Shown: piece by piece, positions 31,009 through 63,499 of the stretch
Numbering within the stretch: the stretch's first letter is position 1
Layout of the letters: each line of letters starts with the position of its first letter
Origin: an uncultured bacterium
GTDB lineage: Bacteria; Auribacterota; JACPWU01
Direction: 5' to 3'
Length of the DNA stretch: 64,000 bases
Assembly: GCA_964640155.1 (NCBI GenBank)
Contig: CAZXEQ010000002.1
Coordinates: forward strand, 322,342 to 386,341
Notes under the pieces: generated by a model
Told to the model about the DNA's origin: nothing
Database searches by the model: none
Seen by the model: only the letters and a program-made list of their open reading frames with translations
Position numbers and translations under genes: made by a program

Positions 31009-33210
31009 TCACTCAACATGAATATTCACTTTTGCTGAAGCGCCTGTTTCGTCTGTAACGTAAATCTCATGCAGGCCAGGTTGAGGAATCCAAAAAAGAG
31101 CTTTTTCTGGACGGGTTTTCCCTATGAGAAGCCCATTCACAAACCACCATCGCCAGGAATGAGGCGATCCTCCTATAGACTGAAGAGGTAGTTTTTGATT
31201 TTTTTGAAAAGAGGGGGCGTCTAAGAAAAATTTTTGATTTGAAGAAATAGAAGAAATGGTTAGTTTAGAAATATCTTTTTCAAGTTCAATAGATTTTGCT
31301 AAACCTTCGTCCTGGATTTGAGGCCATGGTTTATTTTTCGGCTTTAAGCAAGATAGAAGTTTTAAAGTCAAGGGTGCTGCCAAAGTTTGTCCAACTAATT
31401 CATGAGAGCCTTTCCCAAGAGAGTTTCCAAGCCATGTTACAAGTGTGTATTCATGTGTTACTGCTACACACCAAGCATCTTTGTGTGCACTGCTTGTGCC
31501 TGTTTTCCAGGCAGGATTAAATGGAATGGCTTCAGGACAAACAGCGTAAGTTCGTTTGGGATCACTTAAGGCATTCAGTACTTGCCAGCATGCTTTTTGA
31601 GATAATATATTTTGATGGTGTGAATAAAAGTGCGGTCCTTTAAAAAGTGGCGGGTCCTGCCACTCGTCAGCCCCAACGTGCTCACTAAAAGTTGCGCGCG
31701 ATGGGGCCCCCCGCCGAGTGTCACCCGCATCTGTAAAGGACACACTTTTATCTACAGGATTTACATTTTGTGTGGCAGTGTCAGTATTAGATGTTAAAAG
31801 AGGAATATAAGTGACAGGCAGATGAATTCCTCCTCGCCCCAGTGTTGCAAAAGCTTCTGCAAGTTCTATAGGAGAAGCCTCGGCTCCTCCTATAGCTAAA
31901 GAAAGGCCATATCGATCTGGAAATTGCTCCAGTCTTTTAAATCCTAAACTTTGTAAAATTCCAACTACGCGAGCGATGCCTATTTTAGAAAGTAAAATCA
32001 TGGCGGGGATATTTCGACTTTGAGCAAGTGCTTCTGCCGCACACATAAAGCCTCTAAAAGTATGATCAAAATTGCTAGGGGTGTAGCCCTCCCAGCTCAA
32101 AGGAAGGTCTTTTAAAATTGTTGTGGGGGTGCAAATTCCTGCTTCAAAAGCGGCTGCGTAAATAAATGGTTTTAATGTAGAACCTGTTGAATAGTAACGG
32201 TTGGATAAATCTAAATTATTTGCATCGTCACATAAATTAATCGAGGCCAAACACTCAGAAGTTTGTGTGTTTAAAAGAACAAGTGAAAGAGCGTTGATCT
32301 GAGAAGATTTTAACTTTTCGAATTCTTGTTTGGCTATGAGGGTTAACTGCTCTTGAATATCTTTATCTAAAGAGGTTTTAAATTTTCCTTGTTGAAATTT
32401 TTCCTTTAAGGTCAGTAAGATGGGCAGAATTCCTGATTTTTTTTCTTGTGGCAGAGCTTGCCATGTGGCTTGAATAGGTTCTTCAATAGCGCGTGCGTAA
32501 TCTTGCTCAGAGATCATTTTTTCTGATAACATTCGAAACAAAACGTGATTACGTCTCTTAAGTGCACGTTCTATAAAACGATCTGGGCGATAGCGATTGG
32601 GACTTTGAGGAAGGCCTGCCAAAAGGGCAGCTTGGCTTAAAGAAAGATTGCGACATGAAATTCCAAAATATCTCCAGCTTGCAGCACCTACCCCGATTAA
32701 ATTCCCTCCCAAAGGACATCGATTGAGATATTCTGTCAAAATTTCATTCTTACTCATTTTTCTTTCTAATTGATAAGCACGAATAGATTCAATCAGTTTG
32801 GATGAGAAAGTCCGTGGTTTTGGATAACGTAAATGTTCAACTTGCATGGTAAGAGTGCTTGCGCCACGTATGATTTTCATGGCTTTAAAATCTTGCCAAA
32901 GAGCAGCAGCAACGCCAATCCAGTCCACTCCATGGTGTTGATAAAAACGATGATCTTCGACGGCAACAATTGCTTTAAAAAGATAAGGGCTTATTTCTTC
33001 TTCTTTTAATGGAAAATACCATTCATTTTTTTCTGAAACAAAAGCCCCCAAAGGCTTTCCTTCTCGATCTTCTATCCAAAGGCTGGGTGGAGGTTTTGGA
33101 GTGGGAGGATAAGACCAGGAGTAAACTGCAATAGAAAACGAAATACAAATAAAACTGAATACGCTAATAATTCCCAGTATGAAAATTTTGAAAGAATGTT
33201 TAATGGTCAT
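31009..33210 (-). CDS. pbpC: penicillin-binding protein 1C (transglycosylase/transpeptidase)
   Basis: N-terminal TM, glycosyltransferase motifs (EDHRFYQHHGVD; RGASTLTMQ), transpeptidase STGSTLKP; start overlaps stop of upstream A2M gene. Confidence 0.88.
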   Translation of the reverse strand: MTIKHSFKIFILGIISVFSFICISFSIAVYSWSYPPTPKPPPSLWIEDREGKPLGAFVSEKNEWYFPLKEEEISPYLFKAIVAVEDHRFYQHHGVDWIGVAAALWQDFKAMKIIRGASTLTMQVEHLRYPKPRTFSSKLIESIRAYQLERKMSKNEILTEYLNRCPLGGNLIGVGAASWRYFGISCRNLSLSQAALLAGLPQSPNRYRPDRFIERALKRRNHVLFRMLSEKMISEQDYARAIEEPIQATWQALPQEKKSGILPILLTLKEKFQQGKFKTSLDKDIQEQLTLIAKQEFEKLKSSQINALSLVLLNTQTSECLASINLCDDANNLDLSNRYYSTGSTLKPFIYAAAFEAGICTPTTILKDLPLSWEGYTPSNFDHTFRGFMCAAEALAQSRNIPAMILLSKIGIARVVGILQSLGFKRLEQFPDRYGLSLAIGGAEASPIELAEAFATLGRGGIHLPVTYIPLLTSNTDTATQNVNPVDKSVSFTDAGDTRRGAPSRATFSEHVGADEWQDPPLFKGPHFYSHHQNILSQKACWQVLNALSDPKRTYAVCPEAIPFNPAWKTGTSSAHKDAWCVAVTHEYTLVTWLGNSLGKGSHELVGQTLAAPLTLKLLSCLKPKNKPWPQIQDEGLAKSIELEKDISKLTISSISSNQKFFLDAPSFQKNQKLPLQSIGGSPHSWRWWFVNGLLIGKTRPEKALFWIPQPGLHEIYVTDETGASAKVNIHVE
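31627..31750 (+). repeat. palindromic repeat element (RPE-like) copy C, in frame inside pbpC
   Basis: Reverse complement translates without stops as KSVSFTDAGDTRRGAPSRATFSEHVGADEWQDPPLFKGPHF within the PbpC ORF. Confidence 0.7.
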
Positions 33211-36200
33211 GAATGTGAATGGGTTGCAATTTTCATTGTTTCATTGTCACGACTGATGCTGTTAATTGAAATATCATACATGCATTCAGCTTTTACAGGG
33301 GGAACAGTAAAAGTTCCAGGAGTCACAGCCCTGGCTAGATAAGTATATTGTGCTTTCCCTTTGTCTAACATTTTTCCGTAGAGCACAAGACGATCATCAC
33401 GAATATCGATATGACTATCCATAAATGTAGTTTGAGTAGGGTCTTTGAGAATAGAAGCTGAAGTTGCAAGCCTTGGATTTTCAATTTCAAGTCCAGCGGG
33501 AAGCAAATCTTCAATGACCATATTGTCATAACCCAAAGGACATTCTAGATGTATCTCTACTTGTATCAAGTCTCCACTACAAATTTTATCTAGGGCGATT
33601 GCGTGTCCCTGTTGATCAAGATATCTTTTTCTCACACTTATCCCATGATCTTCATTTAAAGGAGGCTCTTTGGCAAGGCCTGTGATGCTCCATGCAACAT
33701 AGCCCTTTGTTTTTTCAGCTCCTGAGATTTTAACTGAAAATTCTTTCCCATTCAGAAATTTATTTGAAGAATTCCAGAGAAGAGAATCTCCATTCCCTGT
33801 TTCAGAAATTTTCTCTGTCCCCGCCCAAAGTTCGGCTGATGTAAAAGGTTCTCCAAAATCTGTTTCCTTTAAATAAGACCCCAGTGCAAGAAGAGCAAAA
33901 GCATGATCTTGCGTACTTTGCCATTTTTTTTCGCCGCCGGCTTGGGCAAGTTCTTTAACCAATTTGGGAAGGGCTGGATTTTGTGGATCAAGTTCAATCA
34001 GACTTTGAATTAAAATAGCTTGATCTCGAATAGGGGACCCAATGTTTCCAGATAGGTCTCTGTTTTGGCGAGGGTGAGGTAGATTCTGAGGAATTAACTT
34101 TAAGGCCAAATCTCGTCTGCCAGAATAAAGCCAGGCCAGGGCAAGATAAAAGCGAGTTGAAGGATGGATGCTAGAGGAGATAGAAGTTGGGAGAGTGGAA
34201 GGTCTTTGAAAAATATCTTCCAGACGTGACATCATGGATCTCTGGGGATATCCCGCTTTAGCAAGAACAAAACAGGCATAAGCCTGAATCTCTAAAATAT
34301 TGGGTTGATCAGAACTTTCGTTTAATAATTTTCGAACATAATTTAAAAGTCGATCGCGAAAATCAGTTGGAATAGAGAAGCCGGCGTTTTCTGCTTCGGT
34401 GATAAAATGTGTTGCATAAACACTGGCCCAGCTCCAGCTCTCAGTATAGCCAGGCCACATAGCAAGTCCCCCTTCAGCTGTTTGCATACTGATCAAACGA
34501 TTAAGAGCTGTTTCAACTCTTTGATGAATGTATTGAGTATTAAATGGTTCTGGGAAAATCTTCTCTCCTAGTTTTTGCAATCCAATGAGAGGAAAGGTGG
34601 TGCTAACCGTTTGTTCGGCACATCCATGGGGGTATTCATTGAGATAATCCAAAGCCTTTGTCAGATTTAAAGTGGGAAATGGAGTTACGTGAATATTCAA
34701 CTGTGTTGTTCCCTCAATCCATTTTTCTGGAATTCTGATTTTAAAATCTTGATGGGGTTTAAGGGTTGCATATCCTCCTTCAGAAATTGAAGGACAGGCA
34801 GGACGAATAGGGAATATGAGATTTTGCTGATATTCTTGTCCATTGAGTTGCGCTTTGATTTTAAGACGAGCTATTCCCATTTTATTCTTAGCTTTCAAAG
34901 GAATGGTGATCACGGTTTGAGCGTTATCGGGAATGGAGTTTGTAGTAAAATTGATTTTTCTTTCGGAGGAGTGTGGAAAATAAACAGGACTTTTATTGTC
35001 TAGTTCTATTGAGAGGTTAGCAATGCCTTCACTTCCCGTATGATTGAAAATGACAATCGGTATTTCAAAATGATCATTATTTGCAGCAAAGCGAGGAGTA
35101 GTACTTTGTAACATGAGAGGAGATTTAACAAAAATGGGCTTAGATGCTGATCCAAAAAATTTTTTAGAATGAGCAATGGCCATGACTCGCAATTGACCTG
35201 TGAATTCTGGAAGACGAAAATCAACTTTTACGTTTCCATTTTCGTCACAGCGAAGTACTTTTGAAACAAGTGCAACATTTTTCATACGTTGTATAGACAA
35301 TGGAGTTAAATGACGTGGCTCATAACCTCCATCTCCTCCCACCGAACTTTTAGGATTTATTTTTGGAATCTCTGGGAAAAGTTCTCCATAAAGATCTGAA
35401 ACAAATACGTTCAAAGCTCGATTTCGATGAAAGAATGAAAAAGGATCTGGGGGTGAGAAATTCGTGAGTTGAAGAATCCCTTCATCTACGATTAACAAAG
35501 TGACCCTTGCATTTTTAGCAGGTTTATTTTGAGGGGTTAAAACTTTTGCTTCAACACGGATTTTGTTTTTGGGCAGGATTTCTTTTTTTGTTTGAATCTT
35601 TATTTTCAGCTTTTGATCGTTATTGTTGATCGCAAGGCGAGTCACGCCAAAAGCACGATGGATTTTCCATGGAGCCTTGGAATGGACGGGCTGAATCACC
35701 GTCGCACTTACATAGGCATTGGGACGATAGCTTTCTAAAATATCAATCGGAATAGATATATGAGATTGTGTCATGGTCAGAACTTTGTGAAAGAGAACAT
35801 TCTCTGTTTCTATCGTTAAAAGAAGTTGCCCTGGGAAAGGACTGCGAACAATGACTTGCGCTTGACCTCCAACTTTCAAAGAGGACGAATATCTATTAAA
35901 GTGCGTCTTTTTAAAAAGAAGTGGGTCCTGCCGCTCGTCAGCCCCATCGTGCTCAGTAAAAGTTGCGCTCGATGGGGCCCCCCGCCGAGCGTCACCCACA
36001 TTTTTAGAATCATTTTTTAATTCTTTGCCCATAGGAATAATTTCAATTTGTAATTGCTCTGGGTTCTCTCGAGAGACTGAATCCTCCCAGCCATTTTCAC
36101 TGCTCACATAAAATCCATGTGAAGTGAAGCTGCCTGTTTGAGAATCTTTGATAGCAATCACATAAGACCCTTCACTGGGAGGAATGATTTCAAAATGTCC

Positions 36201-38948
36201 TTTCTCTTGTTCTAAAATTGCATAAGAAGAAGATGCTTTTTCCAGTATACGTGTTGAGTCATAATGATAGCTCCCATCGCGATAGGTCATGATATTGTTC
36301 CAAGTCTCACGAAAAAGTTGTATCTCCATTTGTTTCGAAATCTTGGCTATTTGCCCATGCCCAGAAACACATGCAATATCAAAAACATACGGAGAACCGG
36401 GCTGAGCTTTTTGATTTTGTTGAGGACGTATGCCGACATAATATGGAACAGTATCAATGAAAACTCTTTTTGTGGCACTGACAGCCCTACCGCCCATTTC
36501 TTGAACACTTCCCAGAACAGTTAATTGCCAGGGACCCGTATACGAGGGGGTTTCTTTTATAAGAGAGTTCGGGGGGTGATTGAGAAGAAGAGAAAGATCT
36601 ACTTTCCATTCACCTTTGCCTTTCTCATTTAATTTAATCTTAGGCGACTCAATCGATTGTCCTTGGGGAAGAATACCTCCAAGTGTTTTAAAAGCATTGG
36701 CAGAATCTGTGAAAGTCCATTCTTTCCAATGTTTGGGTTTGAATGGTGCAGGATCGAGACGACTTGAAAGTGTTGCATCTGTTCCTGAAGCAGGTTGTCC
36801 AAAAAGATAGTTTGCTGCAATATGAACTGAAAGAGATTGTGAGGATAAAGTATAGCGATCATGGCGAATATTTTTTAAATTTAAAGCAACTTTCATTCTA
36901 TCGGGAATAAATTCCTCAACAAAAAAAGAAGTTGTTCCAAATGTTTTAGCATCAGCATCTTTTGATTTTGGAAGGCCAATGGATACAGTCCAATTTCCAG
37001 TGGGAATATCTTGAGGTAATTTGACAGAAAGGTAAACCATTCCAGAACTGTCCACCTTGGCCATGTGTCCTTTCCAATTTCTCCCATCGGGCCTATAAAA
37101 TTGACACCAGACAGGAAATTCTTCGGGGGTACTTAAATGAGGCCCTCGAATGATTGCCCAGAGATGGACTTTTTCACCGGGTCTATAGGCTCCACGTTCA
37201 GAGTAGACAAAAGCTTCATAGGCTTTGGATGAATAAGGACTCCCAGAAATATCAAAATGAGAATAGGAAAGTTCGCTTGTTCTTAAATCTAACCATGTCA
37301 AATGGGCGGGCTCTGTGGCAGCGTTAAAATTTGCAACTACTACGACAGGTTTCTCATCGTTAGAGGTTTCAATGGTATTGATTTTAATAATACCATTTTC
37401 ATCAGAAATTCCTTCTCCCAAAAGTTGATTCTTATTGGAAAATAAGCGAATGCGTACATGCTCCATGGGTTTACCTGTACTTAAAGACAGAGTCCAAACA
37501 AAAAGACCATGAGGGAATCTCTTGGCCACTAAACCAATGTCAGATAATGTAACAACCGTTGTATCGGATAACTCCCAGGCATATCCTTGATTCTCATTCT
37601 CGGCTTTGATTTGAATTTCATAAACCCCATTTTGCTTGAGATTTTCAGGCAGGAGCTCATCCAAGGATAAATGAATATCCTGAACTTTATTTTTCTCCAT
37701 TTCTAATTTAAGAGATTTTTGTGCGATTACTTGACTAAAATGATGAAGACCCATCCATTGATTCTCATAAACCGTGTTTCTCCAATGGACAATATTATTC
37801 TCATACATTTTTGTGAGAGTGATTTGAATGTTTTGAACATTGATAGCGTGAGCTAGAATCATTCGATTCCCTTTAGCTCCCAAAAACCCATGATCCTGTT
37901 CAAACCACACAGAAGCCTTACGATCTGGGATAAAAACACTAAAGAGATCTTCCTGAGGATAATTTTTCGAATCATTTTTGATGCGAGGTGCATTTACTTT
38001 CAATGCATATCGGTTTCCAGGGATAAAATCTGCCTCAAGACTGACTCCAAACCATTCTCGAATCAGTGTGAAGGGTAAAATAGGTTCAATAGAAAGAATT
38101 TCTTTTAAAATTTCTATATCGACATCATTATTGAAATAAAGTTGCAGTCTAATTTTTCCTTTTGAAGAAGAATAAGGTTCTACTTTTGTAATCATTAAGT
38201 GGCGGTTAAGGGTCAATTGCGTTTCATAAAGATTGGTTAATCCTAAAGGCCCACTAATCCCACATAGTCCTTCTCGAATCCTTACAATCACTTGAAGATA
38301 AGAGGATATATTTTGATAGAGAAAAGGAGTGGGCTCTGTCATCACGCGTATCACATTTGCGGTTACGCCTTCATAAAGGCGAAAAGGGATTTTTTGATGA
38401 ACCAGAGATTCAATCTCCAGAAATTTTGCAACTTCAGTTGGAAGCATTTTGTCGTTAAATTCAATTTCAATCATAAACTGATTTTTTTCGTCAAAGGCTG
38501 CTTGGCGTACAGATAAAATTTGCAAGGCTGGGGTTTTGACGGTTGCAGAATACGACTGATTCAGTAAAAACCCTTCCTTGGACTTTAAAGAATGAAGAGG
38601 AAAAGTAAAAGTAAAGGCTGTTGCTTTGGGGAGGTCTTTCTGGGGTGTAAAAGTAAGCTTTCGAGTGTTCACCCATTCCCAATGTCCAGGGATGAGGTAA
38701 GACGCATCGCCTGAACTCTTGATGATGACTTTGGATGAAACATCTTCACAAACCATATCTAAATTAAATTCCCAGGATAAAACAGGCCGTGTTCCTGTCT
38801 CAATATTGTTTCCTGGGTTAAAGCGTTCTATTTTAAGAACATTGAGCGTTTTTAATTGATAAGCATGATGAAATGCTGCCCAGGCAAGAATATTTGTAAT
38901 TGCAAAACAAAAAACGGTTATCCAAAATCGTTTGTGTAACATGAACAT
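33207..38948 (-). CDS. alpha-2-macroglobulin family protein (bacterial A2M, thioester-containing)
   Basis: 1913 aa, N-terminal signal/anchor, thioester motif GCAEQ, large MG-domain architecture; genetically coupled to pbpC. Confidence 0.9.
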   Translation of the reverse strand: MFMLHKRFWITVFCFAITNILAWAAFHHAYQLKTLNVLKIERFNPGNNIETGTRPVLSWEFNLDMVCEDVSSKVIIKSSGDASYLIPGHWEWVNTRKLTFTPQKDLPKATAFTFTFPLHSLKSKEGFLLNQSYSATVKTPALQILSVRQAAFDEKNQFMIEIEFNDKMLPTEVAKFLEIESLVHQKIPFRLYEGVTANVIRVMTEPTPFLYQNISSYLQVIVRIREGLCGISGPLGLTNLYETQLTLNRHLMITKVEPYSSSKGKIRLQLYFNNDVDIEILKEILSIEPILPFTLIREWFGVSLEADFIPGNRYALKVNAPRIKNDSKNYPQEDLFSVFIPDRKASVWFEQDHGFLGAKGNRMILAHAINVQNIQITLTKMYENNIVHWRNTVYENQWMGLHHFSQVIAQKSLKLEMEKNKVQDIHLSLDELLPENLKQNGVYEIQIKAENENQGYAWELSDTTVVTLSDIGLVAKRFPHGLFVWTLSLSTGKPMEHVRIRLFSNKNQLLGEGISDENGIIKINTIETSNDEKPVVVVANFNAATEPAHLTWLDLRTSELSYSHFDISGSPYSSKAYEAFVYSERGAYRPGEKVHLWAIIRGPHLSTPEEFPVWCQFYRPDGRNWKGHMAKVDSSGMVYLSVKLPQDIPTGNWTVSIGLPKSKDADAKTFGTTSFFVEEFIPDRMKVALNLKNIRHDRYTLSSQSLSVHIAANYLFGQPASGTDATLSSRLDPAPFKPKHWKEWTFTDSANAFKTLGGILPQGQSIESPKIKLNEKGKGEWKVDLSLLLNHPPNSLIKETPSYTGPWQLTVLGSVQEMGGRAVSATKRVFIDTVPYYVGIRPQQNQKAQPGSPYVFDIACVSGHGQIAKISKQMEIQLFRETWNNIMTYRDGSYHYDSTRILEKASSSYAILEQEKGHFEIIPPSEGSYVIAIKDSQTGSFTSHGFYVSSENGWEDSVSRENPEQLQIEIIPMGKELKNDSKNVGDARRGAPSSATFTEHDGADERQDPLLFKKTHFNRYSSSLKVGGQAQVIVRSPFPGQLLLTIETENVLFHKVLTMTQSHISIPIDILESYRPNAYVSATVIQPVHSKAPWKIHRAFGVTRLAINNNDQKLKIKIQTKKEILPKNKIRVEAKVLTPQNKPAKNARVTLLIVDEGILQLTNFSPPDPFSFFHRNRALNVFVSDLYGELFPEIPKINPKSSVGGDGGYEPRHLTPLSIQRMKNVALVSKVLRCDENGNVKVDFRLPEFTGQLRVMAIAHSKKFFGSASKPIFVKSPLMLQSTTPRFAANNDHFEIPIVIFNHTGSEGIANLSIELDNKSPVYFPHSSERKINFTTNSIPDNAQTVITIPLKAKNKMGIARLKIKAQLNGQEYQQNLIFPIRPACPSISEGGYATLKPHQDFKIRIPEKWIEGTTQLNIHVTPFPTLNLTKALDYLNEYPHGCAEQTVSTTFPLIGLQKLGEKIFPEPFNTQYIHQRVETALNRLISMQTAEGGLAMWPGYTESWSWASVYATHFITEAENAGFSIPTDFRDRLLNYVRKLLNESSDQPNILEIQAYACFVLAKAGYPQRSMMSRLEDIFQRPSTLPTSISSSIHPSTRFYLALAWLYSGRRDLALKLIPQNLPHPRQNRDLSGNIGSPIRDQAILIQSLIELDPQNPALPKLVKELAQAGGEKKWQSTQDHAFALLALGSYLKETDFGEPFTSAELWAGTEKISETGNGDSLLWNSSNKFLNGKEFSVKISGAEKTKGYVAWSITGLAKEPPLNEDHGISVRKRYLDQQGHAIALDKICSGDLIQVEIHLECPLGYDNMVIEDLLPAGLEIENPRLATSASILKDPTQTTFMDSHIDIRDDRLVLYGKMLDKGKAQYTYLARAVTPGTFTVPPVKAECMYDISINSISRDNETMKIATHSHS
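35898..36010 (+). repeat. palindromic repeat element (RPE-like) copy D, in frame inside the A2M gene
   Basis: Encodes VGDARRGAPSSATFTEHDGADERQDPLLFKKTHF inside the A2M ORF, homologous to the peptide encoded by copy C. Confidence 0.65.
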
Positions 38949-39368: not shown

Positions 39369-40508
39369 TTAAAGCTTTCTTACTTTGACATGAGCTTCTT
39401 CTAATAAGCGTAGACTTACATCCCCTACAGAATAGGCATGACTATAAACAACTTCTTTGATGCCACTATTGATAATCATTTTGGTACACATCAGACAAGG
39501 TGAAAAAGTAGAGTAAATTGTAGAGTCTTTAATGCTGACCCCATGATAAGCCGATTGTGTGATCGCATTTTCTTCAGCATGTGAGCATAAACATTCATCG
39601 AGCTGAGTCCCTTGTTGGGAGAAGCTGTTGCATCGTAGACAACCTCCATCCATACAATTCTTAGTACCACGGGGCGTTCCATTATAGCCCGTGGCAATGA
39701 TGCGTTTGTCTTTAACAATAACCGCCGCGACTTTTCGTTTGATACAATTGCTGCGTAAGGCAACTACTTTAGCAATTCCTATAAAATAATCATCCCAGCC
39801 AGGTCGACTAGAATTTGTTCCATATTTTTTTAATACCTCAATCACTTGTTCGTAAATTTTTTCAAGAGATCCTGCATTCATTAAAGAAGTATCTGAAATG
39901 GCTTGTGTTTGGTCTAGTTGTTGATGGTTAGGATTTTGAGATGAACGTTCTGCGTTTTCCAGACGTATAAATTCTTCTAGAGTCTGAGGGTCATTCTCTC
40001 TTCCTCGGGCTTTGATTCGCTCAAAACGTAGTTCCAGAGGAGCATCAATAAAAAGCAGAATAAAATCTTTTCTTTTCTTGAGGGATTTAGCTTCTTCAGG
40101 ATTGCGGATAGAATCTACAACATAATTTTTATCAACATCTAGAGTAGACGAAATCTTATCTGCTAAAACGGAAGGTCCAAACTGACTACGAAGTTCATTC
40201 CCAACTTGAATTAAATTTTCGCGTGTGATTTGAGTCCGTCGATTTTTGAGTTCATCTCGAAGAACATCCGAAAGCGAGGAATAAATAAACCCCCGTTGTT
40301 TTAAAAATTCTGCGATAACTCCTTTGCCTGAGCCATTTCTTCCAGTGAGTCCAATAATCACAAGATTAGAATCCTTTCTTATCAATTCTACTTTCTCGAT
40401 AGATTCTACTATGAGGCGAGTTGTTGGACAACCATTGTTTAAACTAAAAGCGAGAACGATTTTATAATTAAAAGTGTGTACTTTTAAAAAAGTGGCAGAG
40501 CCTGCCAC
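39369..40508 (-). CDS. P-loop nucleotide kinase / dCMP-type zinc deaminase fusion protein
   Basis: N-terminal IIGLTGRNGSGKG Walker A (CoaE/dNMP-kinase-like), C-terminal deaminase with CSHAEENAI and SPCLMCTKMI zinc motifs; the annotated Met start lies inside repeat copy F so the true start is uncertain. Confidence 0.7.
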   Translation of the reverse strand: MAGSATFLKVHTFNYKIVLAFSLNNGCPTTRLIVESIEKVELIRKDSNLVIIGLTGRNGSGKGVIAEFLKQRGFIYSSLSDVLRDELKNRRTQITRENLIQVGNELRSQFGPSVLADKISSTLDVDKNYVVDSIRNPEEAKSLKKRKDFILLFIDAPLELRFERIKARGRENDPQTLEEFIRLENAERSSQNPNHQQLDQTQAISDTSLMNAGSLEKIYEQVIEVLKKYGTNSSRPGWDDYFIGIAKVVALRSNCIKRKVAAVIVKDKRIIATGYNGTPRGTKNCMDGGCLRCNSFSQQGTQLDECLCSHAEENAITQSAYHGVSIKDSTIYSTFSPCLMCTKMIINSGIKEVVYSHAYSVGDVSLRLLEEAHVKVRKL

Positions 40509-40831: not shown

Positions 40832-41398
40832 ATGAAGAAGTTATTAGCGATTGCCCTTCTTTGCTTAGGCGTAGCAGGTTATGCCAAGGCTGATGAAGGT
40901 TCAGCATGTGTGCTTCATGGTTTTTATCTTGAACCAACTGTAGAAGCTTTTATTCCTTTCAATGATGATTTGGATTCTACAGTTTATGCAGGCGGTAAAG
41001 GTGGATATCAGTTCAACGAATGGTTTGCTGCTGAAATCGAAGCAGGTTGGGCAAACCCAGATCTTGCTGATGTAGGTGATGTCTCCACAGTACCTTTGCT
41101 TTTCAATGCCCGCATTAATTTATGGCCTGGCGTTTACTGTGTTGATCCTTATGTATTCGGCGGTATTGGTATTGCTTTCAATGAACTTGATGGCGTTCCA
41201 GCCGGTGTTGAGATTGATGACAGCTTTGCAGGTCAAATTGGCGCAGGAATTGAATACCATATCAACGAATCTCTTTCAGCTCAGCTTGAGTTGGATTTCT
41301 ACTTTAACAGCCCCGATTTAAACGTCCCTTTATTAGATGAAGAGGATGTTGAATTAAATGCTTTCCGTATCGGTGGCGGTATTACTTGGAGATTCTAA
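40832..41398 (+). CDS. outer membrane beta-barrel protein (OmpW/OmpA-like small porin family)
   Basis: Signal peptide, alternating hydrophobic beta-strand pattern, C-terminal aromatic ITWRF typical of OMP barrels. Confidence 0.6.
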   Translation: MKKLLAIALLCLGVAGYAKADEGSACVLHGFYLEPTVEAFIPFNDDLDSTVYAGGKGGYQFNEWFAAEIEAGWANPDLADVGDVSTVPLLFNARINLWPGVYCVDPYVFGGIGIAFNELDGVPAGVEIDDSFAGQIGAGIEYHINESLSAQLELDFYFNSPDLNVPLLDEEDVELNAFRIGGGITWRF

Positions 41399-45719: not shown

Positions 45720-46002
45720 AAGAACCGTACGTCTTTGAAAAATTATCTTGTCAAAAATAAGTGATTTAAGTTATAGTACCCCTACATGATTTAATTTTAA
45801 TCAAAGCTCTTAAGCGTAAAGAGCAGGTCGCTCTTTCTGCGTTTGGGTTTTGTTTTATTTTTACGGTTTAATTACAGTGTTCTGGCGTGAACCGCATCGT
45901 TTTCCTGTGGTGTTGCACTCCGGTAGAATCTGTAGCACAATCGGCAGTTGGATAATAGAACAGGGAATGCTTTATGTTTTTCCCTTGTTAATTTGGTATG
46001 CA

Positions 46003-46084
46003 GGGCAGGTACCAAAGCGGCCAACTGGGCCAGACTGTAAATCTGGTGGCTATGCCTACGAAGGTTCGAATCCTTCCCTGCCCA
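46003..46084 (+). tRNA. tRNA-Tyr (anticodon GUA)
   Basis: Acceptor gggcagg/cctgccc, D-arm CCAAAGCGGCCAACTGG, anticodon loop cuGUAaa, long variable arm, T-arm GAAGGTTCGAATCCTTC. Confidence 0.8.
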
Positions 46085-46174
46085 TAAAAGTAGGGTTTAG
46101 GGCATAGGGATAAGGGTTGAGAGATACGTTTTTCTCTAAACCCTAGACCCTATACGCTAAGTCCTGAGTTTAAT

Positions 46175-46245
46175 GCGGGAGTAGCTCAATGGTAGAGTTC
46201 CAGCCTTCCAAGCTGGCCATGCGGGTTCGATTCCCGTCTCCCGCT
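46175..46245 (+). tRNA. tRNA-Gly (anticodon UCC)
   Basis: gcgggagTAGCTCAATGGTAGAG, anticodon loop cuUCCaa, T-arm GGGTTCGATTCCCG. Confidence 0.85.
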
Positions 46246-46304
46246 CGAAAAACTCGAGCAGGTGAGACGAGATGTATAAGGTAATATAAGCCCTGATTTT
46301 AACT

Positions 46305-46377
46305 GCCGAGATAGCTCAGCCGGCAGAGCACGTCCTTGGTAAGGACGAGGCCACGGGTTCGATTCCCGTTCTCGGCT
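46305..46377 (+). tRNA. tRNA-Thr (anticodon GGU)
   Basis: gccgagaTAGCTCAGCCGGCAGAGC, anticodon loop uuGGUaa, T-arm CGGGTTCGATTCCCG. Confidence 0.85.
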
Positions 46378-46475
46378 AAGTTATGAGGCTTAGAATAAAT
46401 TTAGAAACAAACGGGATTTGAATTTTTTAAGACGTGGAAATATTAAGAAGAACTTGAATAGGGGAGAAAAACAAA

Positions 46476-47672
46476 ATGGCTAAGGAAAAATTTGAGAGAA
46501 AGAAACCACATGTAAACGTGGGAACGATTGGACACGTAGATCATGGTAAAACGACATTGACCGCAGCATTGACCAAAGTACTGTCAAAGAAGGGTCAAGC
46601 CAAAGAAATCACCTATGCCGACATCGCCAAAGGCGGAGTCGTGCGAGATGACTCAAAGATTGTAACCATTGCCGTATCACACGTAGAATACGAAAGCACC
46701 AATCGACACTATGCGCATATCGATTGTCCAGGACATGCCGACTATGTCAAAAACATGATCACTGGAGCAGCCCAAATGGATGGAGCCATTCTAGTGGTAA
46801 GTGCAACTGATGGACCCATGCCCCAAACAAGAGAACACATCTTATTGGCAAGGCAAGTCGGAGTACCTAACATCGTCGTATTCTTAAACAAATGTGACAC
46901 CGTAGATGATCCAGAACTATTAGACCTCGTAGAACTAGAAGTAAGAGAACTATTAACACAATATCAATTCCCCGGAGACAAAACTCCTATCGTCAGAGGA
47001 AGCGCATTAAAAGCACTACAGGGAGACACGAGCGAACTGGGAGAGCCATCCATTGCTAAACTACTAGAAGCATTGGACAGCTACATTCCAGAACCCAAAA
47101 GAGAAATCGACAAACCCTTCCTCATGCCCGTAGAAGACGTATTCAGCATCACTGGAAGAGGAACCGTAGCAACGGGAAGAATTGAAAGAGGCATCGTAAA
47201 AGTAGGAGAAACCCTAGAAGTCGTAGGACTCAAACCCACTAAAAACGTCGTCGTCACTGGAGTAGAAATGTTCCGAAAAGAACTAGACCAGGGACAAGCA
47301 GGAGACAACGTAGGAGCCTTGCTTAGAGGAGCAGAAAAAGACGACATCGAAAGAGGACAAGTCTTAGCGGCACCCGGAAGCATCAAGCCGCATACCAAAT
47401 TCAAAGCAGAAGTCTATGTCTTGAGCAAAGAAGAAGGAGGAAGGCACACACCCTTCTTCAATGGATACAGACCTCAATTCTACTTCAGAACAACGGATGT
47501 GACTGGAGTGGCGAACCTAGCAGGTGGAATAGAAATGGTAATGCCTGGAGACAACACGGCATTAGAAGTAGAGTTGATCAGTCCAATTGCAATGGACAAG
47601 GGCTTAAGATTTGCAATCCGAGAGGGAGGCAAGACCATCGGAGCAGGTAGAGTTACTGATATTATTGCGTAA
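46476..47672 (+). CDS. tuf: elongation factor Tu (copy 1)
   Basis: [11 protein letters not shown]1 motif, [12 protein letters not shown]; 398 aa; nucleotide-identical to copy at 62231-63427. Confidence 0.95.
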
Positions 47673-47722
47673 ATTAAATACAGGGAGCATGGAATAGGAT
47701 TTAGAACTATTCCTGATTTTAT

Positions 47723-47872
47723 ATGAGAGAAATGATTATTCTCGCGTGCACGGAATGTAAAGACCGAAATTATTGTACTTATAAAAATAAGAAAACGACT
47801 CAAAATCGGTTAGAAAGAAATAAGTTTTGTAGACATTGCCGCAAGCATACGTTGCACAAGGAGACGAAGTAA
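47723..47872 (+). CDS. rpmG: 50S ribosomal protein L33
   Basis: 49-aa [52 protein letters not shown] with CxxC...CxxC zinc ribbon; not in the supplied ORF track; conserved position before secE-nusG. Confidence 0.8.
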
Positions 47873-50631: not shown

Positions 50632-51012
50632 ATGCAACAAATGATCGAGCAAATCGAAAAAATGACAGTATTAGAGCTTTCAGAGTTAGTGAAGGCTTTG
50701 GAGCAAAAGTTTGGTGTAACAGCTCAAGCCCCAGTCATGGGCGTTGCTGTCGCAGGTGCCGCTGGTCAAGCAGGTGGTGCAGCAGCTGCAGTAGAAGAGA
50801 AAACAGAGTTCACTGTTATTCTTGCCAATGCTGGCGATAAGAAAATCAATGTCATTAAAGAAGTAAGAGCCATTACAGGATTAGGCTTAAAAGAAGCGAA
50901 AGATTTAGTTGAGGGAGCTCCAAAACCATTGAAGGAAGGCGTTGCCAAGAAAGAAGCTGAAGAGATCAAGGCAAAGCTTGAAGCTCAGGGTGCAAAGATC
51001 GAACTCAAGTAA
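50632..51012 (+). CDS. rplL: 50S ribosomal protein L7/L12
   Basis: Ala-rich hinge, C-terminal domain [24 protein letters not shown]. Confidence 0.93.
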
Positions 51013-60124: not shown

Positions 60125-62194
60125 ATGGCAAGAGAATACCCTTTAGAAAAAACAAGAAATATTGGAATTTCTGCGCATATTGATGCAGGTAAAACCACGA
60201 CGACAGAACGTATCCTCTTTTATACTGGAAAAGTTCATAAAATTGGAGAAGTTCATGATGGTGCAGCTACCATGGATTGGATGCCTCAGGAGCAAGAACG
60301 AGGTATTACGATTACGGCTGCTTGTACAACCTGCTTTTGGAGAGGAATGCGTGTTAATATTATTGATACGCCAGGACATGTGGACTTCACGATGGAAGTT
60401 GAAAGATCTTTGCGTGTTTTGGATGGAGCTGTGATTGTTTTTTGTGGCGTTGGAGGTGTAGAGCCTCAATCTGAAACGGTTTGGCGTCAGGCGGAACGTT
60501 ATGTCGTTCCACGTATTACTTTTGTTAACAAAATGGATCGTATTGGTGCAGATTTTTTTACTGCAGTAGCTGAGATGAAAGAAAAATTAGGAGCGCATGC
60601 TGTTCCTATTCAAATTCCCTTGGGATCCGAAGACCAATTAAAAGGCGTGATTGATCTTGTTAAAATGAAGGCCATTGTTTTTGATGAAGAATCAAAAGGT
60701 CAAAAATTTGAAGAAGTTGAAATCCCAGCAGAGTATGCAGAAAAGGCTAAAGAATGGCATCACAAGTTGATTGAAGGTTTGGCTGAAAACGACGAAGCTA
60801 TTTTAGAACAGTTCATTGAAGGAAAAGAGCCAACGATTCCAGAGATCAAAGCATCGATTCGAAAAAGTTGTATTGCTGTAAAATTATTTCCAGTAGTGTG
60901 TGGCTCTGCTTTTAAAAACAAAGGTGTTCAGCAAATGTTGGATGCTGTCATTGACTATCTTCCAAGTCCCTTGGATAAACCTCCTGTCATAGGGAAAGAT
61001 CCTGTGACGCATGCAGAAATAGAAAGAAGTACTGGGGATGAAAAACCTCTCTCTGCTTTGGCTTTTAAAATTATGAGTGATCCCTTTGTAGGAAAATTAA
61101 CTTATTTTAGAGTTTATTCAGGCGTTCTTTCCAAAGGTTCTTATGTTTATAACAGTGTAACAGGTCGTAAAGAAAGAATTGGAAGACTTTTAAGAATGCA
61201 TGCGAATCATCGCGAAGACATCGATGAGGTTGGTTCTGGAGATATTGCAGCTGCGGTGGGTATTAAAGAAACACTGACAGGTCAGACTATTTGTGATGAA
61301 GAAAATCAGGTTATTTTAGAATCGATGCATTTCCCAGAACCTGTTATTTCTATGGCCATTGAGCCAAAGACGCAAGCGGATCGCGACAAGCTTTCTATTG
61401 CTTTAGGACGTTTATCTGAAGAAGATCCAACTTTTAGGGTGACTTCGAATCCAGAAACAGGTCAAACCATTATCAGTGGAATGGGAGAGCTTCATTTGGA
61501 TGTTTTAAGAGACAGAATGTTTAGAGAATTTAAGGTTGAGGCCAATGTTGGCGCTCCTCAAGTCGCTTATCGTGAAACCATTGAGAAGCCTGCAGAAGCT
61601 GAAGGAAAATATATTCGACAAACGGGAGGTCGTGGACAGTATGGACATGTCTATGTTGAAATTGAACCTCTTGAGCGTGGCAAGGGTCTTGAATTTGTTG
61701 ACAAAATTGTAGGAGGCGTTGTTCCTCGAGAATATATTTCTTCCGTTGAGACCGGTATCGTCAACGCTGCAAAAGGCGGAATTCTTGGTGGATATCCAGT
61801 GGTAGACCTTCAAGTAAGATTGGTGGATGGTTCTTATCATGAAGTGGATTCGTCAGATATTGCATTCCAAATTGCAGGTTCATACGCTTTTAAAGATGCA
61901 GTCAAAAAGGCATCCCCGATTCTTCTAGAACCCATTATGAAAGTAGATGTGCTTACGCCTGAAGATTATATGGGAGATATTATTGGAGATTTAAACTCCA
62001 GACGTGGACGTATCAATGATATTGAAACTCGTACGAAGAGCAAAGTAGTTCATGCGGATGTTCCTTTGTCTGAAATGTTCGGATATGCGACAGCAATACG
62101 GTCCTTGACAAAGGGACGTGCAAGTTATTCAATGGAGCCCAGTCATTTTGAAAAGGTTCCCAGAAATATTTCTGAAAAGGTGTTAGCAAAATAA
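60125..62194 (+). CDS. fusA: elongation factor G
   Basis: [13 protein letters not shown]1 motif and five-domain EF-G architecture; start set at ATG (MAREYP) rather than the upstream TTG used by the ORF track. Confidence 0.95.
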
Positions 62195-62230
62195 ATTTTG
62201 ATTTAAATTTTTAATCATAGGAGACAATCC

Positions 62231-63427
62231 ATGGCTAAGGAAAAATTTGAGAGAAAGAAACCACATGTAAACGTGGGAACGATTGGACACGTAGATCATG
62301 GTAAAACGACATTGACCGCAGCATTGACCAAAGTACTGTCAAAGAAGGGTCAAGCCAAAGAAATCACCTATGCCGACATCGCCAAAGGCGGAGTCGTGCG
62401 AGATGACTCAAAGATTGTAACCATTGCCGTATCACACGTAGAATACGAAAGCACCAATCGACACTATGCGCATATCGATTGTCCAGGACATGCCGACTAT
62501 GTCAAAAACATGATCACTGGAGCAGCCCAAATGGATGGAGCCATTCTAGTGGTAAGTGCAACTGATGGACCCATGCCCCAAACAAGAGAACACATCTTAT
62601 TGGCAAGGCAAGTCGGAGTACCTAACATCGTCGTATTCTTAAACAAATGTGACACCGTAGATGATCCAGAACTATTAGACCTCGTAGAACTAGAAGTAAG
62701 AGAACTATTAACACAATATCAATTCCCCGGAGACAAAACTCCTATCGTCAGAGGAAGCGCATTAAAAGCACTACAGGGAGACACGAGCGAACTGGGAGAG
62801 CCATCCATTGCTAAACTACTAGAAGCATTGGACAGCTACATTCCAGAACCCAAAAGAGAAATCGACAAACCCTTCCTCATGCCCGTAGAAGACGTATTCA
62901 GCATCACTGGAAGAGGAACCGTAGCAACGGGAAGAATTGAAAGAGGCATCGTAAAAGTAGGAGAAACCCTAGAAGTCGTAGGACTCAAACCCACTAAAAA
63001 CGTCGTCGTCACTGGAGTAGAAATGTTCCGAAAAGAACTAGACCAGGGACAAGCAGGAGACAACGTAGGAGCCTTGCTTAGAGGAGCAGAAAAAGACGAC
63101 ATCGAAAGAGGACAAGTCTTAGCGGCACCCGGAAGCATCAAGCCGCATACCAAATTCAAAGCAGAAGTCTATGTCTTGAGCAAAGAAGAAGGAGGAAGGC
63201 ACACACCCTTCTTCAATGGATACAGACCTCAATTCTACTTCAGAACAACGGATGTGACTGGAGTGGCGAACCTAGCAGGTGGAATAGAAATGGTAATGCC
63301 TGGAGACAACACGGCATTAGAAGTAGAGTTGATCAGTCCAATTGCAATGGACAAGGGCTTAAGATTTGCAATCCGAGAGGGAGGCAAGACCATCGGAGCA
63401 GGTAGAGTTACTGATATTATTGCGTAA
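62231..63427 (+). CDS. tuf: elongation factor Tu (copy 2)
   Basis: Identical in nucleotide sequence to 46476-47672 as far as I can read it; canonical fusA-tuf-rpsJ position. Confidence 0.95.
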
Positions 63428-63499
63428 AAAAGTTTACGATTTTCAGTGTAAAATTCACAGCAAATGGTAGACTGCTAACTTAAAAGTTATAGGGAAGTC

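Follow-up and report, generated by a model that had tools for sequence, protein, structure and literature searches.

The DNA analysed here, referred to below as the window, is a 64-kb stretch from the genome of an uncultured lineage of the PVC group with about 38% GC. It carries two genes for elongation factor Tu (EF-Tu), one behind a cluster of tRNA genes (copy A) and one in the str operon (copy B):

46003..46377, + strand: tRNA-Tyr(GUA), tRNA-Gly(UCC) and tRNA-Thr(GGU), just ahead of copy A in a tRNA-tufB-type arrangement
46476..47672, + strand: tuf copy A, a complete CDS for EF-Tu (398 aa; Pfam GTP_EFTU, D2 and D3)
62231..63427, + strand: tuf copy B, last gene of the str operon (rpsL-rpsG-fusA-tuf), with rpsJ after it

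The gene order around copy A is tRNA-Tyr/Gly/Thr, tuf, rpmG, tRNA-Trp, secE and nusG, followed by rplKAJL and rpoBC. The tRNA cluster is presumably the counterpart of that in the thrU-tyrU-glyT-thrT-tufB operon of E. coli, with tRNA-Tyr(GUA), tRNA-Gly(UCC) and tRNA-Thr(GGU) immediately upstream of one tuf gene, although here an RmuC gene lies between tRNA-Thr(UGU) and the cluster. Promoter and terminator scans gave nothing beyond consensus-level matches, among them a promoter-like site at 45748-45777.

The two tuf copies are identical at 1197 of 1197 nucleotides. The shared stretch extends 0 nt upstream of the ATG and 1 nt beyond the stop codon, and the flanks are unrelated. Four independent sequencing runs with their Logan assemblies contain the same tuf, with 0-2 synonymous differences, on the same unique flanks. 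Logan contigs also cross-join the two loci, linking the upstream flank of copy A to the downstream flank of copy B and the reverse, which indicates that the copies are indistinguishable in other samples too. In a relative, contig L090 ends inside tuf at both ends and has the same arrangement, indicating that the two-copy arrangement is older than the clade. Mobile elements were found at neither tuf locus, and both contexts are canonical. With two conserved contexts and identity limited to the gene, the pair is of the known, concertedly evolving tufA/tufB type. Gene conversion between two ancient tuf loci is supported as the process that keeps the copies identical, and the homogenisation suggested in the initial annotation is borne out by the identity from the ATG to 1 nt past the stop codon and by the cross-joined assemblies.

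Conversion of tuf is reported for six phyla and 29 orders in PMC6053082, which cites Lathe & Bork 2001, and the kinetics of tuf gene conversion have also been described (PMC5485169). Like the tufA/tufB pairs covered there, the pair in the window occupies a str-operon context and a tRNA-tuf-secE-nusG context, with identical CDSs and unrelated flanks. Unlike described pairs, it shows 100% identity that stops exactly at the CDS borders. The pair belongs to the PVC group, whose phyla are absent from those named for tuf in the passages considered from PMC6053082.

Codon usage of tuf and of the other genes in the window

Both tuf copies had been described in the initial annotation as using mostly A- and C-ending codons and no CGT, and the counts agree. 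Third positions in tuf are A in.45, C in.28, G in.12 and T in.14 of codons, while T3 ranges from.32 to.47 in the other ~50 ORFs of the window, rplL being the exception at.25. Valine is encoded by GTA 22 times, GTC 12, GTG 5 and GTT only once in 40, glycine by GGA at 32 of 40 positions, and alanine by GCA 18, GCC 8 and GCT 2 times. Arginine is encoded by AGA 14 times, by CGA 4 times and by CGT at 0 of 20 positions; CTA occurs 10 times against a single CTT, CCC 9 times, and ACC accounts for 10 of the 29 threonine codons. The difference is genuine and highly significant (tuf tested against all the rest, chi2=350.9, df=41, p=7.7e-51). The further claim that the neighbouring genes favour T-ending codons was correct in that they are T3-rich, with GTT, GCT and CGT common, but not for fusA throughout, where GGT and CGT are matched in frequency by GGA and AGA.

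Log odds for tuf were calculated with 33 non-translation ORFs on the same strand as the reference. The S statistic, which reportedly goes back to Sharp et al. 2005, contrasts C with U in the codons for Phe, Tyr, Ile and Asn. In tuf the C:T ratio in these codons is 37:19 against 291:1300 in the background, giving S=+2.15±0.29. Over six NNY families it is 58:33 against 381:1825 (lnOR +2.12±0.22), each NNY family by itself favouring C over T. In the four-fold boxes, the lnOR is +1.99±0.25 for A versus T, +1.92±0.27 for C versus T and +1.21±0.26 for A versus G. Two six-codon families are switched as a whole, Arg from CGN to AGA (16:4 against 163:256 in the background) and Ser from TCN to AGC (9:4 against 151:363). 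T3 is depleted before any next base, most strongly before T (2% vs 51%); a context-specific avoidance of T was ruled out by this generality. GC3 is 0.40 in tuf against 0.30, with C3 up by.17 and G3 down by.07, and the combination of A3>>T3 with C3>>G3 is a strong violation of strand parity. The gene is the compositional outlier of the window.

When the window's 50 ORFs are ranked for the shift, tuf is followed by rplL and then by orf378 and an outer-membrane protein gene:

50632..51012, + strand: rplL (L7/L12), the only other gene clearly shifted to the tuf codon profile
40832..41398, + strand: small outer-membrane beta-barrel protein with signal peptide (PF13505, E=4.5e-15)

In rplL, S is +1.50±0.56, T3 is.25 and A outnumbers G by 21:2 in the four-fold boxes; its tuf-likeness of -0.222, against -0.452±0.075 in the background, places it ~26% of the way to tuf (z≈+3), and its codon shifts correlate with those of tuf (Spearman r=+0.37). 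L7/L12 is present in several copies per ribosome. The outer-membrane protein gene has a weak C preference (NNY C:T 20:40, lnOR +0.79, p=0.007, uncorrected over 50 genes), as is expected of another abundant protein. No shift was found in 17 ribosomal-protein genes of the window and of Logan contig L089 (S=-0.17±0.16), nor in fusA (S=0.00±0.25) and rpoBC (+0.08±0.14), and the tuf-likeness scale puts the S10 operon some 2% along from the background towards tuf. The bias is thus not common to the standard highly expressed set of ribosomal proteins and EF-G, in which rplL alone is shifted. The codon shift appears to scale with presumed protein abundance, from EF-Tu far above L7/L12 to the outer-membrane protein and then the ordinary ribosomal proteins. 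Because linear scaling predicts a small positive S for the ribosomal proteins, whose S is about 0, the gradient is steeper than in textbook cases.

The tRNA genes fit this profile in part. The tRNA-Gly and tRNA-Thr encoded just before copy A have GGA and ACC as their Watson-Crick codons, and tuf uses these two most often for Gly and Thr. Among the nine tRNA genes of the window, Gly-UCC (GGA), Thr-GGU (ACC) and Ser-GCU (AGC) fit the tuf codons, while tRNA-Arg(ACG), tRNA-Thr(UGU) and tRNA-Ser(CGA) do not, CGN, ACA and TCG being under-used in tuf.

Persistence of the bias in relatives and across lineages

The depletion of T3 in tuf recurs in relatives. In L086/L087, L093 (90% EF-Tu identity) and L174/L175 (82%), T3 of tuf is.17-.22 against.26-.38 in the neighbouring genes, and rplL is again intermediate in those with a T3-depleted tuf. 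Scans of genome and metagenome contigs yielded no relative closer than 77-83% among the matches listed, and they served as a broad survey. Between the tuf genes of the window and of L086, 54 of 149 four-fold sites are identical against 36 expected, and the sites are thus nearly randomised. Since they are near saturation and the relatives are T3-depleted all the same, the depletion has been maintained in each lineage and not merely inherited. The T3 profile along the gene is also the same in L086; a mosaic origin of the central part of tuf was rejected for this reason, and the common profile reflects regional amino-acid content, not recombination.

The preferred third base differs between these lineages, being A or C here (GC3 0.30) and G in the relatives (GC3 0.39-0.48), where AAG and CAG replace AAA and CAA in tuf. 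In L086 the shift is to purines (GTG, ACG, CCG and ATA, 10/27 vs 11/184), with little NNC preference, which looks more like a base-level purine preference than anticodon matching. Optimal codons were shown to shift when the GC content of a genome changes (Sun, Tamarit & Andersson 2016, PMC5629928). As in that study, the third base favoured in a given highly expressed gene is not the same in close relatives of differing GC; unlike there, the shift is seen in tuf alone and is inferred from metagenomic contigs.

How unusual this is was judged from a survey of 111 loci, in which tuf was compared with neighbouring translation and transcription genes by a within-family codon distance corrected for amino-acid composition. 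The window ranked 2nd of 111 lineages with a distance of 0.364 (median 0.156, 90th percentile 0.247), and all its clade-mates were within the top 11. The same T-to-A change in tuf was also seen in L085 and L054, lineages unrelated to this one, and G3 is gained with loss of C3 or T3 in about twenty others. In all, tuf-specific third-base shifts (gain of A3 or G3, loss of T3 or C3) were seen in about a fifth of the 111 lineages, many of them environmental MAGs, indicating that a tuf-specific bias is recurrent. The clade is an extreme case of it, and its A+C flavour is rare.

Explanations for the codon profile

The initial annotation pointed to horizontal replacement, in which a foreign tuf allele would have displaced the native one, kept its codon usage and spread to the second locus by conversion. 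Part of the argument turns on one segment of the protein:

46581..46685, + strand (62336-62440 in copy B): non-canonical switch I/effector loop, tuf codons 36-70

A replacement of this kind would suit the outlying composition of tuf in the window and the identity of its two copies, as well as this segment of ~30-35 residues, the only part of tuf with a discordant phylogenetic affinity: it is of an 'AKGG' type common to Omnitrophica-labelled proteins (~77% identity there), the equally close L175 being canonical. Outside switch I, however, EF-Tu is closest to the canonical-type clade-mates (86%), other AKGG proteins being below 81%. Neighbour-joining (NJ) trees on p-distances, with the switch I segment removed and 100 bootstrap replicates, placed the body of EF-Tu with the clade-mates at 87% bootstrap; in 92 of 100 replicates the sister group of the window's EF-Tu contained no AKGG-type protein, and monophyly of all AKGG proteins was recovered in 0/100. 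The closest named matches of RpoB are 'MAG: Chlamydiae bacterium' (82%), then Auribacterota-labelled (~66%) and Verrucomicrobia-labelled (~64%) proteins, from which the lineage is assigned to the PVC group; Aureabacteria-labelled EF-Tu proteins are adjacent in the NJ tree, as for RpoB, with a joint grouping at only 15% bootstrap. The conflict with core markers that a transfer would produce is thus not seen for the gene body, switch I alone being discordant. Divergence is in proportion as well: EF-Tu is 90% identical to that of L086, in line with EF-G (86), S10 (89), L14 (88), L16 (89) and S12 (94), and the corresponding values against L175 are 86 for EF-G, 82 for NusG and 86 for both L11 and L7/L12. 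Neither divergence, synteny nor mobile flanks indicate acquisition, the contexts being canonical and free of mobile elements and the two-tuf arrangement being the same in L090. Against L086 the synonymous sites are near saturation, both genes are T3-depleted and the replacement bases differ, and T3 is no different in the codons of switch I (5/35) from that in the rest of tuf. We know of no genome background that combines A3>>T3 with C3>>G3, and a profile that breaks strand parity is not a plausible signature of a donor genome. The gene body has descended vertically, and with its proportional divergence, canonical synteny and synonymous turnover a foreign origin of the codon profile is unsupported; we regard horizontal replacement as very unlikely. 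Scarcely any credence is due to an artefact, that is, a chimeric assembly with the tuf of another organism or an overlapping gene that constrains third positions. It is true that tuf is a conserved repeat often mishandled by assemblers and that such trouble was met here (the L090 contig ending in tuf, internally duplicated tuf in L085/L088 and the cross-joined Logan contigs), but in each of four independent runs the gene, with 0-2 differences, is joined to the same unique flanks, the identity of the copies stops exactly at the CDS borders, and the divergence of EF-Tu matches that of its neighbours. As for an overlapping gene, the antisense strand of tuf had been called almost free of stop codons, which is wrong: its three frames contain 21, 10 and 22 stops, or 2.5-5.5 per 100 codons against 1.3-8.6 in other genes. 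Its longest open run is 110 codons, no different in size from spurious antisense ORFs in rpoB and fusA. The only frame opened by the loss of T3 is the sense +2 frame (3.5 vs 8-10 stops per 100 codons), and it holds no full-length ORF, and the alternative sense frames of tuf have 3.5-9.3 stops per 100 codons. No antisense or alternative-frame gene was found across tuf, no open run exceeding 110 codons, and an Rfam scan gave no family besides tRNAs.

The remaining alternatives act on the message or on mutation. Selection on the tuf mRNA, with U or pyrimidines avoided to limit secondary structure, unwanted RNA-RNA pairing or cleavage of the RNase E/Y type in a transcript of extreme abundance, would account for the avoidance of T beyond third positions by family switches (AGC in place of TCN for Ser, CTA in place of TTR/CTT for Leu, AGA in place of CGT for Arg), for the strongest depletion of T3 before a following T (2% vs 51%), for the shift of the relatives to purines, the normally rare ATA included, and for the tuf-specific gain of G3 or A3 in many unrelated lineages; the tuf codon set also gives predicted local folding weaker by ~2 kcal per 120 nt than recoding with the usage of the neighbours. 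On the other hand, native tuf is more structured than synonymous shuffles of its own codons (z=-2.1 here, -3.7 in L054), and with a gap to the recoded gene of only ~2 kcal, selection for an unstructured message is unsupported and was rejected as the primary cause. Moreover, there is a strong enrichment here (+0.17) of C3, the pairing partner of the G that abounds at first positions, the AAG and CAG that replace AAA and CAA in the relatives are purine-to-purine changes for which avoidance of U or pyrimidines fails, and ribosomal-protein mRNAs are also abundant yet unshifted. We therefore consider an mRNA-level cause unlikely, though still conceivable in the form of U avoidance for RNase resistance. 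A neutral, gene-specific mutational cause could be a transcription-associated strand asymmetry or GC-biased conversion between the copies, and tuf, a known substrate of conversion (PMC5485169, PMC6053082) that is presumably transcribed more than any other protein gene, does have a GC3 raised from 0.30 to 0.40. However, GC-biased conversion would lift G3 and C3 alike, whereas here C3 rises by.17 and G3 falls by.07, with the reverse in the relatives; the single-copy rplL is, moreover, partly shifted in the same direction. Transcription-associated bias as reported in bacteria is C-to-T on the coding strand and would raise T3, which is lowered in tuf. Mutation pressure of either kind is accordingly highly improbable.

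The reading we favour, with a probability of about 0.65, is that the tuf profile results from translational selection for efficient decoding, visible almost only in the most heavily translated gene. Broken strand parity, a dose-like gradient and persistence over saturated synonymous sites argue for selection, which the initial annotation had named as its other option; the form favoured here is the ordinary, expression-linked translational one, with S decreasing from tuf to rplL. Selection would outweigh the mutational equilibrium of the genome, which is rich in AT and in T3, in no mRNA other than the one translated most heavily. It would favour codons whose third base is Watson-Crick matched to the usual first base of the anticodon (NNA with U34, NNC with G34), AGA would be favoured over CGU, the latter being read by inosine, and T-ending codons, always read by wobble, would be purged, with G-ending codons mildly reduced. 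To our knowledge, no bacterial tRNA is Watson-Crick matched to a T-ending codon, since the sole A34 tRNA, Arg-ACG, carries inosine. Gene conversion, which keeps both tuf genes identical, would allow each codon gain to be shared by the two, and the higher-GC, G3-preferring relatives may have putative CNN tRNAs that the AT-richer genome here would lack. The data show the pattern with its statistics, the dose-like ranking, the recurrence in relatives and the vertical descent of the gene body; we infer that selection acts on the efficiency of decoding and that the favoured codons are those suited to the tRNA pool. An accuracy-based (Akashi-type) version of this selection found no support, preferred codons showing no clear enrichment at conserved EF-Tu residues (Mantel-Haenszel OR 1.28).

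The profile agrees with the major-codon-preference model of selected codon bias in several respects. As in selected bias elsewhere, NNY codons show a preference for C over U, codons that suit G34 and U34 anticodons are favoured, and the effect is strongest in what is presumably the most abundant protein and appears graded. Unlike in usual cases, the reference set is heterogeneous, with S≈0 in 17 ribosomal-protein genes, fusA and rpoBC. The four-fold boxes of E. coli and Bacillus typically prefer T-ending CGT, GGT, GCT and GTT, unlike those of tuf here, which prefer A and C. In Salmonella, EF-Tu is the most highly expressed protein, and replacement of optimal codons in tuf costs 0.2-4.2e-4 per codon per generation (Brandis & Hughes 2016, PMC4786093). 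The gene pair is the same as in the window, and codon choice in it is visible to selection there; unlike the situation here, Salmonella is a fast grower whose ribosomal-protein genes are also biased and whose optimal codons are others (PMC4786093). The kind of phenomenon is already known, and the steepness of a bias limited to tuf is unusual.

It is rather doubtful that tuf is under a gene-specific synonymous constraint and not just at the top end of general translational selection. The 17 unshifted ribosomal-protein genes and the tuf-specific shifts in about a fifth of the 111 lineages are compatible with such a constraint, which might consist in a need for the EF-Tu message itself to be decoded without wobble or through purine-ended codons, the supply of EF-Tu limiting its own synthesis. 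If it were true, tuf would not belong together with ribosomal-protein genes in a reference set for codon usage, and a bias of tuf alone could reveal decoding constraints where selected bias is thought absent.

Judging from the favoured reading, expression-linked selection, the window is a clean example of an atypical composition in a core gene that is no evidence of transfer, and selected codon bias, at least within this PVC clade, can be restricted to EF-Tu, with a faint extension to L7/L12. Ribosomal proteins and elongation factors have been pooled as a reference set (PMC3522724). Where the bias is confined to EF-Tu, such pooling would score the genome as unselected, which would affect pooled estimates of growth rate or of translational selection; in practical terms the effect is modest.

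The switch I loop deserves a separate remark. The canonical loop reads …IDNAPEEKARGITI… and is present in L175, while the EF-Tu of the window, to which L175 is as close as the other relatives, does not have it. A third type, …VAKASESQGRRD…, occurs in Aureabacteria-, Holophagales- and Phycisphaerae-labelled proteins. Because EF-Tu outside the loop is nearest to clade-mates of the canonical type, the segment behaves, as far as these comparisons go, as a cassette that may have been exchanged by recombination between close relatives or repeatedly remodelled. The tuf gene of L175 is T3-depleted as well in spite of its canonical loop, and the cassette is therefore unrelated to the codon anomaly.

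Codon usage of tuf in other lineages

In about one-fifth of the 111 lineages surveyed, tuf shows a gain in G at third codon positions (G3; up to +0.29) together with a loss of C3 or T3, while the adjacent fusA, ribosomal-protein and rpoBC genes of the same lineages do not show this G3-gain shift. Many of these lineages are represented by metagenome-assembled genomes (MAGs) from environmental samples. Because such tuf-only shifts occur in about one-fifth of lineages, the codon usage of tuf often departs from that of the "highly expressed" genes usually taken as a reference set. The loci below illustrate the shift, together with the tuf gene of a relative of the window.

L046, L096, L002, L021, L075, L011: tuf-only G3 gain relative to flanking genes
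L077, L003, L029, L169, L004, L176: further loci with tuf-only G3 gain relative to flanking genes
L086 2815-4011: tuf of a relative whose EF-Tu is 90% identical to that of the window

ATA is normally the rarest isoleucine codon. It accounts for 10 of the 27 isoleucine codons in L086 tuf versus 11 of 184 in the neighboring genes. This tuf also favors GTG, ACG, CCG, TTG, AAG, and CAG. Its profile is purine-ending, unlike that of the window tuf, which is A/C-ending.

The switch I loop of EF-Tu

The EF-Tu of the window has a non-canonical switch I/effector loop of the "AKGG" type.

Window 46581-46685 and 62336-62440: non-canonical switch I/effector loop, tuf codons 36-70
L175 2849-4039 and L092 13930-15126: loci listed with the switch I comparison

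L175, a relative that is just as close (EF-G 86%), carries the canonical loop IDNAPEEKARGVTI, and a third loop type, VAKASESQGRRD, was found in proteins labeled Aureabacteria, Holophagales, and Phycisphaerae. In the alignment, a Lys of this AKGG-type variant is positioned with the Gly of canonical "RGITI." When the loop was excluded, the window EF-Tu clustered with its canonical-type clade-mates (87% bootstrap), and monophyly of the AKGG-type EF-Tu proteins was never recovered. This functionally central loop looks to have undergone either cassette exchange or repeated remodeling.

Repeated tuf copies, assembly errors and the str operon

Some EF-Tu proteins in public assemblies are "long," with a stretch of ~80 residues in domains II-III repeated in tandem inside the protein.

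L085 9040-10479 and L088 8183-9610: "long" EF-Tu proteins P0006-P0008, 475-491 aa
L090 12586-12699: rpmJ (L36) between rpsG and fusA

The two copies of the repeat match exactly in L085 but differ from each other in L088. We do not read these proteins as real variants; most likely they arose when two tuf copies, or strain variants, were mis-assembled. Logan contigs L081 and L082, from short-read assemblies, were compared with window positions 46416-47732 and 62171-63487, and were found to link the two loci crosswise: the flank upstream of copy A is connected with the one downstream of copy B, and the flank upstream of copy B with the one downstream of copy A. Both ends of L090 (GCA_016178055.1, an 82%-RpoB relative) break within tuf. 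MAG contigs of this clade are systematically fragmented or chimerized by the tuf repeats. The str operon of L090 carries the rpmJ insertion between rpsG and fusA, which is missing from that position in the window.

Other genes in the window

31009-38948, - strand: bacterial alpha-2-macroglobulin (1913 aa) and adjoining PBP1C-type gene
39369-40508, - strand: 379-aa ORF, AAA_17/AAA_18 plus deaminase
40832-41398, + strand: small outer-membrane beta-barrel protein

The alpha-2-macroglobulin carries MG and bait-region domains and is directly followed downstream by a PBP1C-type transglycosylase/transpeptidase gene (BiPBP_C domain); the two constitute a known gene pair, A2M-PbpC. In the 379-aa ORF, an AAA_17/AAA_18 (adenylate-kinase-like) domain at the N terminus is joined to a dCMP/cytidine deaminase domain at the C terminus. 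Third positions of the beta-barrel gene are unusually pyrimidine-rich (C3.21, T3.47, G3.09), with a mild NNC preference, and its product is possibly a major outer-membrane protein.
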